A stretch of 10,156 nucleotides of DNA from IMG/VR virus record IMGVR_UViG_2565956614_000006; one strand, written 5' to 3'. Made by a program: the position numbers and the translations under genes. Source of the DNA: a virus. Its lineage: Duplodnaviria; Heunggongvirae; Uroviricota; Caudoviricetes. Below the pieces are notes generated by a model. It was not told the DNA's origin, ran no database searches, and saw only the letters and a list, made by a program, of their open reading frames with translations. Below, in pieces: positions 1-9,803 of this stretch (the first letter of the stretch is position 1; each line of letters begins with the position of its first letter).

Positions 1-672
<672 letters not shown>

Positions 673-2957: not shown

Positions 2958-3164
2958 ATGAATAAAGAACAATCTGCTGATGAACTCTCGTTGGATCTGA
3001 TTCGTGTAAAAAATATGCTTAATAGCACCATTTCTATGAGTTACCCGGATGTTGTAATTGCATGTATAGAACATCAGGTGTCTCTGGAAGCATTCAGGGC
3101 AATTGAGGCAGCGTTGGTGAAGCACGATAAGAATTCGAAGGATTATTCCCTGGTGGTTGACTGA
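2958..3164 (+). CDS. Hypothetical small protein (68 aa), occupying the position of ynfO/ylcI-type morons upstream of terminase
   Basis: [71 protein letters not shown] with GGAG RBS 7 nt upstream of the ATG; no recognisable motif. Confidence 0.5.
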
Positions 3165-3184
3165 GCACCATAACTGCTAATCAT

Positions 3185-3352
3185 TCAAACTATTTCACCT
3201 GTGACAGAGTCAATATCGCATTCTGTCACTGTCAGGCTAATACAGAGCTGCAATTCAACTACTGCAATGTCCTCGTAATTAGGTGAATTTACAATATCGT
3301 CCTGTTCGGATGCCGGCTGCATTGCTGAAGATGAGGCATTTATGGTTCGCAT
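3185..3352 (-). CDS. Possible small acidic protein (55 aa), minus strand; speculative
   Basis: ATG at 3352 (minus) preceded by a GAGGGG RBS-like sequence 5 nt upstream; translation MRTINASSSAMQPASEQDDIVNSPNYEDIAVVELQLCISLTVTECDIDSVTGEIV; not in the ORF track (below length cutoff); overlaps a palindromic element. Confidence 0.2.
   Translation of the reverse strand: MRTINASSSAMQPASEQDDIVNSPNYEDIAVVELQLCISLTVTECDIDSVTGEIV
3193..3201. repeat. First copy of a thrice-repeated 9-mer TTTCACCTG
   Basis: Exact 9-mer also at 3635-3643 and 3712-3720; this copy abuts the palindrome gtgacaga...tctgtcac (3201-3229). Confidence 0.6.
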
Positions 3353-3488
3353 ATTTTCCCCTCATGCTCGTCAGTCCTGTGCGTAGGAAGAAACAGGACA
3401 CTCACACTAATTTGTGTGGGCATGCTGTGATGTCCTTCTGAATTATTCCTATGCCATTATGTAAAGCGCTGTATCAGATGCTCGTCAC

Positions 3489-3511
3489 GGCTGTCAGGCT
3501 GTCAGGCTGTC
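3489..3511. repeat. Tandem octamer repeat (GGCTGTCA, nearly 3 copies) immediately upstream of the cos-like site
   Basis: ggctgtca ggctgtca ggctgtc read directly; related CTGTCA(GG) motifs recur at 3223-3236 and 3662-3667. Confidence 0.6.
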
Positions 3512-3536
3512 GGGTCCTCCCGGTGGGGGCCCCTGC

Positions 3537-3557
3537 CACGGGGCGGGAGCGTCGCGG
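3537..3557. other. cos-like site: putative cosN (cohesive-end site) of the prophage
   Basis: acgGGGCGGGAGCGTcgcgg resembles phage lambda cosN acgGGGCGGCGACCTcgcgg (recalled lambda left end GGGCGGCGACCTCGCGGG): identical flanks and first 6 nt of the 12-mer; lies about 180 bp upstream of the small terminase start in a GC-rich block. Confidence 0.5.
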
Positions 3558-3633
3558 AAAAAGGCTAGTTTTTGCATTTCCATGGCGGCGGCAGCATGTT
3601 TGGTAATTTATTGATAATTAAAAGTTATTTCTC

Positions 3634-3720
3634 TTTTCACCTGTACAATATTTTTTTCTCCCTGTCATTAGACCAGTTTGCAATTAATTGAAATATATAA
3701 ATAAACATGATTTTCACCTG
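3634..3720. promoter_or_regulatory. Two direct copies of TTTTCACCTG spaced 77 bp apart between cosN-like site and terminase start; candidate cosB-type terminase or IHF binding region
   Basis: ttttcacctg at 3634-3643 and 3711-3720 in AT-rich DNA; the second copy overlaps the first ATG of the track ORF, arguing for a downstream start of the small terminase. Confidence 0.4.
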
Positions 3721-3736
3721 CCAGATGGAGTTGCTT

Positions 3737-4264
3737 ATGTCAAATGTGAGCGGGATCGGTGATGCTTATTACTGGAGTGTTTTTAAAATCGCTGAGGCCT
3801 TTGGGCTTCACCGGGACACAGTAAAAAAACGGCTCCTCGCGGCCAACACTCCTGTGGCTGCGACTGTCAGGGGGAACCCCGTTTACGCCCTGCAGCATGT
3901 CGGGCCAGCCCTGTTTAGTGTGAAGCATGAGGCAGCAGACTCTGTTCATGATCCATCCCGTATGGAGCCGAAAGAGAGAAAGGACTGGTACCAGTCTGAA
4001 AATGAAAGGATCAAGCTGGAAAAGGAGCAGCGAAAACTCATCCCCGTTGATGAAGTAGTCATCGTCTATTCGTCCATGAGAAAGGCTGTCGTCCAGGTTC
4101 TGGAGACAATTCCGGATGTTCTTGAACGCGATTGCGCCCTGACTCCTCAGGCCGTCGGCGTTGTACAGCAGGCCATTGATGACCTGCGATACACTCTTCA
4201 GGAAAAATCCTACGAGGCTTGTGCTGCTGAATTAATTCCTGATGAGGAAGGAGAGAGTCTCTAG
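3737..4264 (+). CDS. Terminase small subunit (DNA-recognition subunit; not Nu1-like in sequence)
   Basis: Immediately upstream of and coupled to the large terminase; N-terminal HTH-like segment (YYWSVFKIAEAFGLHRDTVKKRL); acidic C-terminus. Start at 3737 preferred (GGAG RBS 6 nt upstream); alternatives 3707 and 3725. Located downstream of the cos-like site. Confidence 0.65.
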   Translation: MSNVSGIGDAYYWSVFKIAEAFGLHRDTVKKRLLAANTPVAATVRGNPVYALQHVGPALFSVKHEAADSVHDPSRMEPKERKDWYQSENERIKLEKEQRKLIPVDEVVIVYSSMRKAVVQVLETIPDVLERDCALTPQAVGVVQQAIDDLRYTLQEKSYEACAAELIPDEEGESL

Positions 4265-4272
4265 GAGGAATA

Positions 4273-6372
4273 ATGGGTTTTTCATCAGCCCGAAATTTGG
4301 GAAGGGACATATCGGCAGGATTTTCCCCACCACGTCGCATGCCGATTTCGGAGGCTGTTAAAAAATTCATGCGTGTTCCCAAGGGGGCTGGTAACTCGGT
4401 GCCATGGGATCCTGAACTGACACCCTACATCATTGAGCCCATGAACTGCCTGGCATCGCGTGAATACGATGCGGTGATTTTTGTTGGTCCTGCGCGAACA
4501 GGGAAGACCATTGGTCTGATCGATGGATGGATTGTCTATACCATCGTTTGCGATCCTTCGGACATGCTCGTTGTGCAGATGACCGAAGATAAGGCCCGCG
4601 AGCATTCTAAAAAGCGCCTCGACAGAACGTTCAGAAGCAGTGCGGCGGTAAAGAAAAGAATGAGTCCACGTCGTAACGACAATAATGTCCATGATAAGAC
4701 GTTCAGGGATGGCTCGTTCCTTAAAATTGGTTGGCCCTCGGTCAACATTATGTCGTCGTCGGATTACCGGTTTGTCGCCTTAACCGATTACGACCGTTTT
4801 CCGGAGAATATCGACAGCGAGGGTGATGGTTTCTCCCTGGCCTCAAAACGTACCACCACATTTATGTCCGCCGGGATGACTCTGGTGGAGAGCTCGCCGG
4901 GACGTGACATCTGCGACAGCAAATGGCGACGTAAGTCGCCTCATGAAGCGCCACCGACGACTGGTATTCTTTCCCTTTACAATCGTGGTGACCGCCGCCG
5001 CTGGTACTGGTCATGTCCGCACTGCGGTGAATATTTTCAGCCAGCCATGGATGCCATGACCGGCTACCGTAATGAACCGGATCCCTTTAAAGCCAGTGAG
5101 GCGGCGTATCTACTTTGCCCGCACTGCAGCGGCATTATCACTGCGGAGAAAAAGCGTGAGCTCAATAGTGCAGGAGTCTGGTTGCGTGAAGGTCAGGTCA
5201 TTGATCGTAACGGCAACGTTTCCGGTGAACCGCGCCGCTCCCGTATCGCCAGTTTCTGGATGGAAGGGCCAGCTGCTGCGTATCAGACCTGGGCGCAACT
5301 GGTTTACAAATTACTGACTGCAGAACAGGAGTATGAAGCGACAGGAAGCGAAGAAACACTCAGGGCGGTTATCAACACCGACTGGGGATTGCCTTATCTT
5401 CCTCGTGCCAGCATGGAGCAACGAAAAAGTGAACTGCTTGAGCAGCGGGCAGAGCCAGTTCCTTCCCGCAGTGTGCCGGATGGCGTTAATTTCCTTGTGG
5501 CGACAGTGGATGTGCAGGCGGGACGTCATCGCCGTTTTGTGGTTCAGGTAACGGGCTATGGCAGTCGTGGCGAACGCTGGATTATTGATCGTTACAACAT
5601 CACGCAGTCATTGCGCAGTGACTGCGACGGGGAGAGCCAGCGAATTGATCCGGCCAGCTATCCGGAAGACTGGGATGTCCTGCTGACGGATGTTTTTCAT
5701 AAAAGCTGGCCGCTGGCCTCCGATCCTTCTCAACAAATGCGACTGATGGCAATGGCGGTGGACTCCGGCGGTGAAGACGGGGTCACTGATAATGCCTATA
5801 AATTCTGGCGTCGTTGCCGTCGTGATGGCCTTGGTAAACGTATTTACCTGTTTAAGGGTGACAGCATCCGGCGCGCAAAACTGATCAGCCGTACATTCCC
5901 TGATAACACCGGACGAACGGGCCGCCGGGCGCAGGCCGCAGGTGATGTGCCGCTCTGGCTTCTTCAGACGGATGCCCTGAAAGACCGGGTGAATAACGCG
6001 TTATGGCGTGACTCGCCAGGTCCAGGCTATGTGCATTTCCCTGACTGGCTGGGGAGCTGGTTTTACGACGAACTGACGTATGAAGAGCGGAGCAGTGACG
6101 GGAAATGGAGTAAGCCGGGTCGCGGTGCCAACGAAGCTTTTGACCTGATGGTGTATGCCGAGGCTCTGGTCATTCTGCATGGATACGAAAAGATCCGCTG
6201 GCCGGATGCACCGGAGTGGGCGAGCCGGGAAACCTGGCTGGAGTGTGTCCAGGACAGTACCGAACCGTCATCCTCACCGGAACCGGTATCCACGCCTGTT
6301 AAAAAACAAAAACGGAAGAAAACAGTAACTGACGATGTTAACCCCTGGCTGACTTCCGGAGGATGGTTATGA
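4273..6372 (+). CDS. Terminase large subunit, lambda GpA family
   Basis: 699-aa ORF with AGGAGG RBS; Walker A-like VGPARTGKT; CPHCGE and CPHC motifs like those I recall in lambda gpA; size and position match the GpA family. Confidence 0.88.
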   Translation: MGFSSARNLGRDISAGFSPPRRMPISEAVKKFMRVPKGAGNSVPWDPELTPYIIEPMNCLASREYDAVIFVGPARTGKTIGLIDGWIVYTIVCDPSDMLVVQMTEDKAREHSKKRLDRTFRSSAAVKKRMSPRRNDNNVHDKTFRDGSFLKIGWPSVNIMSSSDYRFVALTDYDRFPENIDSEGDGFSLASKRTTTFMSAGMTLVESSPGRDICDSKWRRKSPHEAPPTTGILSLYNRGDRRRWYWSCPHCGEYFQPAMDAMTGYRNEPDPFKASEAAYLLCPHCSGIITAEKKRELNSAGVWLREGQVIDRNGNVSGEPRRSRIASFWMEGPAAAYQTWAQLVYKLLTAEQEYEATGSEETLRAVINTDWGLPYLPRASMEQRKSELLEQRAEPVPSRSVPDGVNFLVATVDVQAGRHRRFVVQVTGYGSRGERWIIDRYNITQSLRSDCDGESQRIDPASYPEDWDVLLTDVFHKSWPLASDPSQQMRLMAMAVDSGGEDGVTDNAYKFWRRCRRDGLGKRIYLFKGDSIRRAKLISRTFPDNTGRTGRRAQAAGDVPLWLLQTDALKDRVNNALWRDSPGPGYVHFPDWLGSWFYDELTYEERSSDGKWSKPGRGANEAFDLMVYAEALVILHGYEKIRWPDAPEWASRETWLECVQDSTEPSSSPEPVSTPVKKQKRKKTVTDDVNPWLTSGGWL

Positions 6373-6581
6373 ACCAGAATGATATCGAAGCCATGATTCA
6401 GCGTTATATGGAAGCTGAAATGGCGGTGCTGGACGGAAAATCCGTCACCTTTAATGGTCAGCAGATGACCATGGAAAACTTATCTGAGATCCGGCAGGGA
6501 CGGCAGGAGTGGGAGCGCCGCCTTGCGGCTCTGATTACACGACGACGGGGGCATCCCGGGTACCGGCTGGCGAGGTTCTGA
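6369..6581 (+). CDS. gpW-like head-tail joining / head completion protein
   Basis: 70-aa ORF, ATG overlapping the terminase stop (ATGA), GGAGGA RBS 6 nt upstream; size, position between terminase and portal, and C-terminal ...RRRGHPGYRLARF (compare lambda gpW ...RRRGPAGFYV, recalled) support gpW. Confidence 0.6.
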   Translation: MNQNDIEAMIQRYMEAEMAVLDGKSVTFNGQQMTMENLSEIRQGRQEWERRLAALITRRRGHPGYRLARF

Positions 6582-8089
6582 TGGCAATTCTTGATGATGT
6601 GATTGGCGTTTTTTCACCAGGATGGAAAGCGGCAAGGCTGCGTTCCCGTGCGGTGATCCAGGCTTATGAGGCCGTAAAAACGACGCGGACACACAAAGCC
6701 CGACGGGAGAACCGAACTGCCGACCAGTTAAGCCAGTACGGGGCCGTGTCGTTACGTGAGCAGGCCCGTTACCTTGATAACAACCACGATCTGGTTATTG
6801 GTGTATTTGACAAGCTGGAAGAACGGGTGGTGGGGAAAAACGGGATTATTGTCGAGCCACATCCGGTATTACGCAATGGGGCCATTGCCCGTGACCTGGC
6901 TGCGGAGATTCGCACCCGATGGAGTGAATGGTCTGTCAGCCCGGAAGTCACCGGGCAGTTTACCCGTCCGATGCTGGAACGTCTGATGCTTCGTACCTGG
7001 CTGCGCGATGGTGAGGTGTTTGCCCAGATGGTTTCCGGGCGCATAAACAGCCTGGCACCTTCTGCCGGTGTTCATTTCTGGCTGGAGGCGCTCGAGCCAG
7101 ACTTTATTCCCATGACCAGTGATGAGAGCAACAGGCTGAATCAGGGCGTGTTTGTTGATGACTGGGGGCGTCCCGAAAAATATCTGGTGTATAAAAGCCG
7201 TCCCGTATCCAGACGGCAGATGGAAACCAAAGAAGTTGATGCAGAGCGAATGCTGCATCTTAAATTTGTTCGCCGTCTGCACCAGATGCGCGGGACGTCT
7301 TTATTGTCCGGTGTGCTGATCCGCCTCAGTGCCCTGAAAGAATATGAAGATTCTGAGCTGACTGCAGCAAGGATCGCCGCTGCTCTGGGGATGTACATCC
7401 GGAAAGGCGACGGGCAGAGCTATGAACCGGATGGTAATGGCAGAAAGGAGAATGAACGTGAGCTTACCATTCAGCCGGGCATTATTTACGACGATCTGAA
7501 ACCCGGCGAAGAAATCGGAATGGTGAAGTCGGATCGCCCCAATCCTAACCTTGAAACTTTTCGTAATGGTCAGTTGCGTGCCGTGGCGGCGGGCAGTCGT
7601 CTGAGTTTTTCCAGTACAGCGCGCAACTATAACGGCACTTACAGCGCCCAGCGTCAGGAGCTGGTTGAATCTACTGATGGCTACCTGATCCTGCAGGACT
7701 GGTTTATTGGTGCCGTCACCCGCCCGATGTACCGTGCATGGCTGAAACAGGCTGTGGCATCCGGTGTTATCAGGCTACCCCGCGATCTTGACCGTTCTTC
7801 ACTGTATACCGCGGTGTATTCCGGACCAGTGATGCCGTGGATTGACCCTGTTAAGGAGGCTGAGGCCTGGAAAATCCAGATTCGTGGTGGAGCGGCGACA
7901 GAATCAGACTGGGTACGTGCTGGTGGTCGTAATCCGGATGATGTCAAACGTCGGCGCAAGGCCGAAATTGATGAAAACCGCAAGCTGGATCTGGTATTTG
8001 ATACCGATCCGGCCAGTGATAAAGGAGGCAGTAGTGCCGCAACGAAACGACAGGAGCCGCAGCACACCGACGACCAGTCCGAAGAATAA
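6581..8089 (+). CDS. Portal protein (lambda gpB-like family)
   Basis: 502-aa ORF from the ATG overlapping the gpW stop (TGATG); the track ORF extends 24 codons upstream to 6509 but this start is coupled. Size and position between gpW and the head protease fit a portal. Confidence 0.8.
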   Translation: MAILDDVIGVFSPGWKAARLRSRAVIQAYEAVKTTRTHKARRENRTADQLSQYGAVSLREQARYLDNNHDLVIGVFDKLEERVVGKNGIIVEPHPVLRNGAIARDLAAEIRTRWSEWSVSPEVTGQFTRPMLERLMLRTWLRDGEVFAQMVSGRINSLAPSAGVHFWLEALEPDFIPMTSDESNRLNQGVFVDDWGRPEKYLVYKSRPVSRRQMETKEVDAERMLHLKFVRRLHQMRGTSLLSGVLIRLSALKEYEDSELTAARIAAALGMYIRKGDGQSYEPDGNGRKENERELTIQPGIIYDDLKPGEEIGMVKSDRPNPNLETFRNGQLRAVAAGSRLSFSSTARNYNGTYSAQRQELVESTDGYLILQDWFIGAVTRPMYRAWLKQAVASGVIRLPRDLDRSSLYTAVYSGPVMPWIDPVKEAEAWKIQIRGGAATESDWVRAGGRNPDDVKRRRKAEIDENRKLDLVFDTDPASDKGGSSAATKRQEPQHTDDQSEE

Positions 8090-9803
8090 TTCCTGGTTCA
8101 GGATGCAGGCTGGTCACCAGAGTGACGCGGATATTTATATTTATGACGAGATTGGTTTCTGGGGTGTTACAGCGAAGCAGTTTATCAGTGATCTGAATGC
8201 ACTGGGCGATATCACCCACATTAATCTCCATATTAATTCACCGGGTGGCGATGTCTTTGAAGGCATCGCCATTTTTAATGCGCTGAAAACACATGGTGCG
8301 TCCATTACCGTTTATGTCGACGGTGTGGCGGCGTCAATGGCGTCGGTCATTGCGATGGTAGGAAACCCGGTCATTATGCCGGAAAACACCTTCATGATGA
8401 TTCATAAACCATTTGGCTTTACGGGCGGTGATGCGGAGGACATGCGCACCTATGCCGACCTGCTCGATAAAGTTGAGGCGGTTCTGTTACCCGCTTATGC
8501 ACAGAAAACCGGGAAAACCACCGATGAAATTGCTGCCATGCTGGCGGATGAGACCTGGATGTCCGGTGCCGAATGTCTGGCACATGGATTTGCTGATCAG
8601 GTAACGCCAGCCGTTAAGGCAATGGCATGTATTCAGTCAAAACGTACAGAGGAATTTAAAAAGATGCCGGAATCCATTCGAAACATGATTACTCCGCCAC
8701 GCAACAGTGCTCCACGCGTACAGGATAATGAACCTGAAGCCTCCCGGACGCCAGTGCAGGCAGCAGCACCCGTGGTGGATGAAAACAGCATCCGTGCGCA
8801 GGTACTGGCAGAGCAAAAAGCGCGTGTAAACGGTATTAATGACCTGTTTGCCATGTTTGGCGGGCGTTATCAGACGCTGCAGGCTCAGTGTCTTGCCGAT
8901 CCTGAATGTTCGCTGGAGCAGGCCCGTGAAAAGCTGTTGAACGAGATGGGGCGCGAGTCCACGCCATCCAATAAAAATACCCCGGCTCATATTTATGCCG
9001 GTAACGGTAATTTTGTGGGGGACGGGATCCGCCAGGCGCTGATGGCGCGTGCCGGATTTGAAAAAACCGAACGTGATAATGTTTACAACGGGATGACCCT
9101 GCGTGAATATGCCCGTATGTCACTAACTGAACGGGGTATTGGGGTTTCCGGTTATAACCCGATGCAGATGGTCGGTGCGGCGTTCACACACAGTACGTCT
9201 GACTTCGGTAATATTCTGCTGGATGTTGCGAACAAAGCCATTCTGCAGGGCTGGGAAGATGCCCCTGAAACCTATGAACAGTGGACGCGGAAAGGTCAGT
9301 TGTCTGATTTTAAAATTGCCCATCGTGTGGGTATGGGTGGCTTCAGTGCTCTGCGTCAGGTGCGTGAAGGGGCGGAATATAAATACGTCACCACCGGAGA
9401 TAAACAGGCCACTATTGCACTGGCGACCTATGGCGAGCTGTTCAGTATCACCCGTCAGGCCATTATCAATGATGATCTGAATATGCTGACCGATGTCCCG
9501 ATGAAACTGGGCCGTGCGGCGAAATCCACTATTGCCGATCTGGTTTATGCCATTCTGACGTCTAACCCGAAAATCTCCACAGATAATGTAAGTCTGTTCG
9601 ATAAAGCGAAACATGCAAACGTACTGGAGAGCGCAGCAATGGACGTGGCATCGCTGGATAAAGCCCGCCAGTTGATGCGCGTTCAGAAGGCGCTGGATTT
9701 AACGTGGGGTCACCTCAACAGGCAGGTATATCTGAACTTGTTTTACGTGCAGGTAATGGTAATCCGAAGGGGATTACTGGTGCTTTATGGCAGCGCACAT
9801 TGA
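8034..9803 (+). CDS. ClpP-like prohead protease fused to scaffold/major capsid protein; 3' end disrupted by a deletion junction
   Basis: ClpP (S14) signature blocks [10 protein letters not shown]...[31 protein letters not shown]; C-terminal two-thirds resembles an HK97-fold capsid domain. Preferred start GTG 8034 with AAGGAGG RBS 5 nt upstream (inside portal 3' end); alternative ATG 8103. The frame ends in an implausible tail (...[28 protein letters not shown]) while another frame continues as tail-fibre sequence. Confidence 0.8.

Follow-up and report, generated by a model that had tools for sequence, protein, structure and literature searches.

Does a cohesive-end site that begins like that of phage lambda and then departs from it belong to a packaging module of altered specificity, or is it the ordinary cos of a known kind of phage? 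The question is raised by a short segment in a window of 10,156 nucleotides (the whole stretch of DNA analysed here), in which the first-pass annotation had seen a variant of lambda cosN. We conclude that this segment is very probably the cosN of an E. coli prophage, a temperate siphophage that is lambda-like and of the cdtI/Tritos type, as judged from sequence comparisons, and that the divergent right half of its core is ordinary natural cosN variation of a documented class.

For the comparison with lambda, both ends of NC_001416 were joined to give the reference cos, GGGTCCTTTCCGGTGATCCGACAGGTTACG-GGGCGGCGACCT-CGCGGGTTTTCGC (junction ...TTACG-GGGCGGCGACCT-CGCGGG...), and set against the wider cos sequence of the window, GGGTCCTCCCGGTGGGGGCCCCTGCCACG-GGGCGGGAGCGT-CGCGGAAAAAGGC. 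The two have the same left flank (ACG), the same right flank (CGCGG) and the same cohesive-end bases 1-6 (GGGCGG), whereas bases 7, 8, 9 and 11 are mismatched and bases 10 and 12 agree, so that 4 of the 12 core positions differ. The deposited lambda sequence thus bears out the description of the site as lambda-like flanks and a lambda-like first half followed by a divergent second half. The skeleton ACGGGGCGG-N6-CGCGG has a single match in the window, with 0 mismatches, as compared to a mean of 0.04 matches in shuffled sequences when up to two mismatches were allowed; the resemblance to lambda cosN is far beyond chance. Within the 16 bp of cosN, the flanking CG dinucleotides and the conserved left half (CG-GGGCGG......-CG) are those found in lambda at the same positions, and twofold symmetry covers 8/16 bp in the window versus 10/16 in lambda. 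A distinct 12-nt 5' overhang, as proposed at the outset, is also what we would predict, the core GGGCGGGAGCGT differing from that of lambda.

The likeness to lambda extends beyond the span first reported. The window carries the heptamer GGGTCCT 29 bp to the left of the predicted nick, and the same heptamer lies 30 bp to the left in lambda, where we take it to be cosQ, the packaging termination signal. A 7-bp cosQ at about 30 bp upstream of cosN is hence present, and it does not vary in any of the E. coli relatives examined or in 34 unique IMG/VR sequences with a cosB of the window type. The 7-bp cosQ has been described as highly conserved among lambda-like phages (PMC4669245). In contrast, Gifsy-2, Fels-1, and PSTCR8lys, which come from Salmonella and Providencia, have AGGTACTCC at the place where the E. 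coli phages have GGGTCCTCC, and therefore cosQ is not invariant across the wider family.

Table 1. Features of the cos region and of the genes to its right, in window coordinates. Positions in bp are counted from the first cohesive-end base (window 3541 = bp 1).
Feature	Window position	bp	Strand	Sequence or remark
cosQ-like heptamer	3512..3518		+	GGGTCCT; same as lambda 48473-48479 (NC_001416)
cosN segment	3537-3557			CACGGGGCGGGAGCGTCGCGG, i.e. CACG-GGGCGGGAGCGT-CGCGG
cosN, 16 bp	3539..3554		.	12-bp cohesive-end sequence plus conserved CG on each side
Predicted nicks	3540/3541 (top strand), 3552/3553 (bottom strand)			by homology and from phage record ends
Predicted 5' single-stranded cohesive end	3541..3552		+	GGGCGGGAGCGT; left end of virion DNA
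Conserved spacer, at position of lambda I2 segment	3553..3574	13-34	+	CGCGGAAAAAGGCTAGTTTTTG
Candidate R3-position element	3581..3598	41-58	+	CATGGCGGCGGCAGCATG
IHF consensus site, candidate equivalent of lambda I1	3604..3616	64-76	-	TATCAATAAATTA
Direct repeat, copy 1, candidate R2-like TerS site	3634..3643	94-103	+	TTTTCACCTG
Direct repeat, copy 2, candidate R1-like site	3711..3720	171-180	+	TTTTCACCTG
terS	3737..4264		+	small terminase subunit (DUF1441)
terL	4273..6372		+	gpA-family large terminase (ATPase and cosN-nicking endonuclease)
Head-tail adaptor	6369-6581		+	
Portal	6581-8089		+	lambda family
ClpP protease/major capsid fusion	from 8034, truncated at 9689		+	

Indirect support for a cohesive end at this position comes from phages whose deposited genomes begin there. 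The first-pass annotation had suggested searching the segment against phage genome termini, and this search was productive: the GenBank records of cdtI (AB285204, 2007) and Tritos (OV696610) open exactly at the base corresponding to window position 3541 and close at ...CCACG, i.e. ...CTGCCACG. The cosN sequence is consequently not new, being the already deposited left end of the published cdtI and Tritos genomes. Tritos is prophage 3 of E. coli LF82, produces virions and gave a plaque once; the paper describing it is silent on the basis for choosing the start of the record (PMC9928086). The first 80 bases of Tritos match window 3541-3620 with 100% identity. A third relative, HannyBb (PP925841), was deposited as a phage from bird faeces and has the same cos at an internal position of its record. 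We count all three as virion-forming relatives, cdtI being described as inducible. Their 12-nt core, flanks and cosQ are identical to those of the window, their cosB is 98-99% identical and their TerS 100% identical over 179 aa; from cosQ through the start of terS, DNA identity is 98-100%, which places the window among the bearers of the cdtI/Tritos-type cos. The record of cdtI (AB285204/NC_009514) is collinear with window 3541-9688 at 97-100% identity and with no indels.

The whole window is 100% identical to a prophage in the chromosome of E. coli KV7, at least 80% of it is found at one place in 748 of 5,426 complete E. coli genomes, and the stretch from cos to terS is present in 661 of the same 5,426. 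A packaging signal of this kind is what one would expect in so common a type of E. coli prophage. Annotation can place the true left end of the prophage's virion map here, and the cohesive-end sequence could be used for the design of end-ligation or PhageTerm-style checks. The papers that a literature search for the 12-mer and similar cores brought up all dealt with unrelated matters (G-quadruplexes, primers etc.). Outside of Escherichia, contigs of a Veillonella parvula MAG and a Bacillota MAG carry the complete cosQ-cosN-spacer-cosB of the E. coli phages and are most likely mis-binned Escherichia phage contigs. Exact 20-mer matches in Treponema, Sphingomonas, and Streptomyces were set aside as chance, since they come without cosQ and spacer.

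Several other records bear on the length of the cohesive end. Hafnia phage yong2 opens at CGCGG, directly after the position homologous to the 12-mer, and the record of LLS marks a "5' extended single-strand cohesive site" at the corresponding place; for mEp213 and LLS, the 12-mer GGGCGGCGCGCT was designated as 5' cohesive end by inference, with credit to M. Feiss (PMC12315714). For the cyanophage Cr-LKS3, whose TerS is 38% identical to that of the window, 5' cohesive ends have been determined by experiment, and these measure 9 nt between the same lambda-like flanks (PMC9303873). It might be argued from this measurement, and from the 9-14 nt that separate ACG from CGCGG in members of the family, that the nicks in the window have a stagger other than 12 nt, e.g. 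9 nt, and that the starts of the cdtI and Tritos records were chosen by analogy with lambda only. We consider this very improbable. The spacing from CG to CG is exactly 12 bp in the window, lambda, Gifsy-1, and mEp213/LLS, and the 9-nt end of Cr-LKS3, lying between the same flanks, suggests that the nicks track the flanks. A 12-nt 5' overhang with the sequence GGGCGGGAGCGT on virion DNA is therefore strongly favored by the flanks and the record ends taken together.

The genes to the right of the site are those of a phage packaging and head module (Table 1). Both terS and terL are intact ORFs. The terS start chosen here corresponds to RefSeq, and its methionine hardly varies among homologues; starts further upstream would be 3725, as in the cdtI annotation, and 3707. 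The ATG lies at bp 197 from the cohesive end, compared with 191 in lambda. TerL matches Pfam GpA_ATPase (E = 4e-80) and GpA_nuclease (E = 2e-86), i.e. a large terminase of the gpA family lies downstream of the site. To the left of cos, a lysis/moron region comprises rrrQ, rzpQ, cspI, ynfN, gnsB, and ybcV-like and ybcW-like genes. Phage-inducible chromosomal islands (PICIs), which hijack the terminases of lambda-like helper phages, likewise retain cosQ and cosN of lambda-like form next to a different cosB (PMC9026076), and a PICI cos could in principle look like the one described here. Yet, this reading is practically negligible and was rejected on gene content: the set downstream consists of terS, terL, portal, and protease-capsid genes collinear with cdtI, there is no rpp gene, and a phage lysis module (rrrQ/rzpQ) lies upstream. 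As a separate observation on the upstream region, the Rfam cspA thermoregulator matches at 890-1275 with 112.8 bits, above the gathering score, over the leader of the prophage gene cspI and the start of that gene.

The small terminase had been called unlike Nu1, which holds true at the level of sequence family. TerS matches Pfam DUF1441 (E = 1.9e-44) and PHROG 141, "terminase small subunit" (E = 3.8e-65); DUF1441 was its only Pfam match and BLASTP against Nu1 was non-significant (E = 4.6), which places it outside the Nu1 family (Pfam Phage_Nu1) by sequence. NCBIfam holds no model for this protein. The statement might not extend to architecture. In a comparison of the two proteins by hhalign the probability was only 11% (E = 0.0027), with an alignment that was collinear from end to end. 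An AlphaFold model based on 33 homologues (mean pLDDT 83.6) predicts that residues 16-64 form a strand-helix-helix-hairpin-helix unit, with three long helices after it. The best Foldseek matches of the N-terminal unit are MerR-like winged-helix domains, namely RacA, TnrA/GlnR, BldC and the MerR family, with probabilities of up to 1.0 and weak E-values (≥0.046); one viral packaging-motor entry appears in the list, at rank 19. A profile search of solved structures with the TerS alignment gave no relevant match. The DNA-binding domain of Nu1 belongs to the MerR-like winged-helix fold class, and the model of the window protein predicts an N-terminus of the same kind, so that "not Nu1-like" applies to the sequence family of TerS and not necessarily to its architecture.

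A foreign small terminase attached to a lambda cosN would point to a mosaic module, as had been suggested. In that sense, the module is not mosaic. TerL, too, is distant from its lambda counterpart, with only 24% identity to gpA (over 627 alignment columns, E = 3e-22), and the module is for this reason not lambda machinery with a swapped small subunit. Lambda and the window have in common cosQ, the bases flanking the nicks, bp 1-6 of the cohesive end, the 12-bp stagger (predicted in the window), a cos about 190 bp upstream of terS, and an IHF site (a candidate in the window) between cosN and terS, but spacer and cosB are unrelated in sequence and the small subunit is Nu1 in one and a DUF1441 protein in the other. 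The closer kin are found elsewhere: mEp213/LLS/Eeyore, mEp460, Fels-1, VT1-Sakai, and Gifsy-2 combine the same DUF1441 TerS with a gpA-type TerL and a protease-capsid fusion, and have the cos architecture of the window. Based on these comparisons, cos, terS, terL, portal, and protease-capsid genes form a coherent and widespread module of the Gifsy-2/Fels-1/cdtI/mEp213 type. Modularity is visible at a finer scale. TerL was compared with the window in six relatives only (Eeyore, Flotzy, PhiR40_1, mEp460_4F5, VT1-Sakai, and 1720a-02), where its first 200 residues are 69-78% identical, versus 35-42% identity for TerS in the mEp213/mEp460/Fels-1/VT1-Sakai/Gifsy-2 group, in which cores and cosB elements differ as well.

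How unusual is the divergent core? Alignment of the homologous cos sites of 17 phages, plus Gifsy-1, revealed a common layout of cosQ, about 20 bp, CCACG, the core, and the spacer CGCGG(A/G)AAA(A/C)GGC..TTTTT. In this setting, the core reads GGGCGGGAGCGT in the window, cdtI, HannyBb, PhiR40_1, and Tritos, GGGCGGCGCGCT in mEp213, LLS, Eeyore, and Kp4865-4, GGGCGGGAGCGG in mEp460, GGGCGGCGTGCT in PSTCR8lys, and GGGCGGCAGCGG in Fels-1. Gifsy-1, a Salmonella phage that is lambda-like by the Feiss definition and has true Nu1 and gpA homologues together with heads of the lambda/21 type, ends in GGGCGGCAGCGT, which differs from the core of the window at bp 7 only; cosQ (GGGTCCT) is common to both, whereas the right flank of Gifsy-1 is CGCAGG, unlike the CGCGG of the window. 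Relative to lambda, the Gifsy-1 core differs at bp 8, 9, and 11, exactly as stated in earlier work, in which differences at bp 7-12 were reported to be common among lambda-like phages and the CG dinucleotides flanking the nicks to be conserved (PMC4669245). The distance from ACG to CGCGG varies as well: it is 9 nt in mEp460_4F5 and Flotzy, 10 nt in 1720a-02 and CP-1639, 11 nt in VT1-Sakai, and 14 nt in Gifsy-2, whose left half has also diverged to GGTGGC. These cores of 9, 10, 11, and 14 nt between the same flanks, which indicate that overhang length is not fixed in the family, could be real variants of cohesive-end length, assembly errors at cos, or damaged sites.

The divergent core had also been taken as a sign of altered cos specificity, in the sense that TerL, as part of a mosaic terminase, came to require GGGCGGGAGCGT through co-evolution and would leave a cosN of the lambda type uncut. 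The 4 differences from lambda, the distance of TerL from gpA and the separate Pfam family of TerS are all compatible with this proposal, which we nevertheless regard as improbable. Lambda TerL efficiently nicks a cosN carrying base changes in the right half, the right-half changes of the tested N15 variant had no effect on nicking, and neither lambda nor N15 terminase displays cosN specificity; packaging specificity instead resides in the interaction of TerS with cosB (PMC4669245). Moreover, Gifsy-1, whose terminase subunits are true homologues of Nu1 and gpA, uses a core one base away from that of the window, and either GGGCGGCGCGCT or GGGCGGGAGCGT occurs in relatives with 77-78% TerL identity across the first 200 residues. 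Finally, a scan of IMG/VR with the exact 20-mer recovered at least 120 contigs, and among the matches listed cosN and spacer, unchanged, are followed by at least three types of cosB/TerS, i.e. the window type, the mEp460 type, and the PhiR40_1 type. Since a single cosN goes with at least three kinds of cosB, it is most likely cosB and the small terminase that determine packaging specificity in these phages as well. A single cosN combined with several cosB/TerS alleles illustrates the established view of cosB-TerS specificity and does not extend it.

Between cosN and terS, the window contains candidate counterparts of the elements known from lambda cosB (Table 1). The spacer next to cosN is nearly identical in all phages carrying the TerS family of the window, whatever their type of cosB, and the mosaic switch point lies just to the right of it, at about bp 34-36. 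Next comes CATGGCGGCGGCAGCATG, which is conserved in the cosB sequences of the window type (type A) and is located roughly at the position of R3 in lambda (bp 50-65) and N15 (bp 48-60) (PMC9026076). Relatives have a different trinucleotide-periodic element at this position, e.g. TCATCATCATCATG or CACCATCACCACC. We infer that TerS binds at the CATGGCGGCGGCAGCATG candidate, and the R3-position element may be a hypervariable recognition element for the small terminase. A three-base period at the R3 position was observed in every relative: the unit is GGC GGC GGC AGC in the window, CAT CAT CAT CAT in Fels-1, VT1-Sakai, and LLS, CAC CAT CAC CAC in 1720a-02, and CAG CAG CAG in PSTCR8lys. The candidate IHF site is the sole exact match to the consensus WATCAANNNNTTR in the 10-kb window, at a chance expectation of 0.57 per window, and is kept in relatives with the same cosB type. 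As for the direct repeat TTTTCACCTG, the first copy is only partially conserved among these relatives and the second is located 17 nt upstream of the terS ATG.

Across the 34 unique close relatives, cosB is conserved so uniformly that the bounds of TerS binding sites do not stand out, and more distant phages provide a point of comparison. Providencia phage PSTCR8lys, whose TerS is 56% identical, contains inverted repeats with TCACCT at bp 93-135 and has TTTTCACCTGNCAGA in common with the window directly upstream of terS. In Fels-1, cosB holds a clear direct-inverted-direct series of repeats, TCATCATCAT.. / ..GATGATGA.. / TCATCATCTT, an arrangement that corresponds to the R3-R2-R1 layout described for lambda-like phages. 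The cosB of VT1-Sakai yielded the first direct and the inverted copy only.

Homology with lambda suggests how the site might work, with the nick positions and the binding sites of IHF and the small terminase assigned on the same grounds. IHF would probably help by bending the DNA at 3604-3616, and bound small terminase would place the large subunit, a gpA-family protein, on cosN. This subunit would then nick top and bottom strand at the predicted positions, and the resulting virion DNA would have 5' cohesive ends of 12 nt, the left one being GGGCGGGAGCGT. Packaging is expected to proceed rightward from terS and to stop at the next cos, where cosQ and cosN would both be needed. [quoted passage not shown]

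Whether the window copy itself is active is a separate matter. Collinearity with cdtI stops abruptly at 9689, inside the ClpP protease/major capsid fusion, and the RefSeq annotation of KV7 has this fusion without its C-terminus and, as the feature that follows from 10019 onward, a tail protein without its N-terminus; the segment 9689-10156 holds a deletion junction. Having lost part of the capsid gene as well as genes downstream of it, with a fragment of a tail gene now adjoining the truncated end, the prophage is defective and cannot package itself. Its intact cos could therefore serve only in trans, for a helper phage whose specificity matches. The same truncation, which makes heads of its own impossible, invites the view that the site is a fossil, left without function as a cryptic prophage decays and used by nothing now. 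We hold this to be possible, though doubtful: every cos element is undamaged, terS and terL are intact, the stretch from cosQ to the start of terS has hardly diverged from virion-forming Tritos, cdtI, and HannyBb, and the site could still be cut if a phage of the same specificity resided in the same cell. In any case, the fossil view concerns the present activity of this copy and not the identity of the site as a cosN of the cdtI/Tritos type.

Several minor features surround the site. A tandem octamer, GGCTGTCA, is present in two exact copies plus GGCTGTCG and abuts cosQ at 3489-3512. Its copy number and sequence vary among relatives, and the sequence to the left of cosQ in cdtI differs from that of the window in being without these repeats; given this variability and its absence from cdtI, the octamer is probably dispensable for packaging. 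A 51-aa ORF at 3451-3606 (+) spans both cosQ and cosN and matches no PHROG family, and the HannyBb record has hypothetical proteins annotated over the same cos stretch (3052-3284 of its locus). Such ORFs called across cos are probably spurious. Scanning for promoters and terminators around cos gave nothing above chance.

A further idea concerns the mobility of the site. The unit of cosQ, cosN, and spacer might move between phages as a cassette independent of cosB and terS, with the right-half variants constituting "cohesive-end compatibility groups". We consider this rather unlikely. If true, these groups would decide the cyclisation of chromosomes cut at two prophage cos sites in a polylysogen, and they would shape exchange and helper-mobilisation of defective prophages such as the one in the window. 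Two cos sites also occur together on one 12-kb contig, IMGVR_UViG_2574179916_000005, at 93-112 and 8228-8247, in the same orientation and 8.1 kb apart. They have the same cosN and different cosB, the mEp460 type coming first and the window type second, and the mEp460-type cos is followed by an ORF the size of TerS (164 aa) and an apparently truncated TerL (331-aa ORF). This contig looks like a rearranged composite of two prophages.
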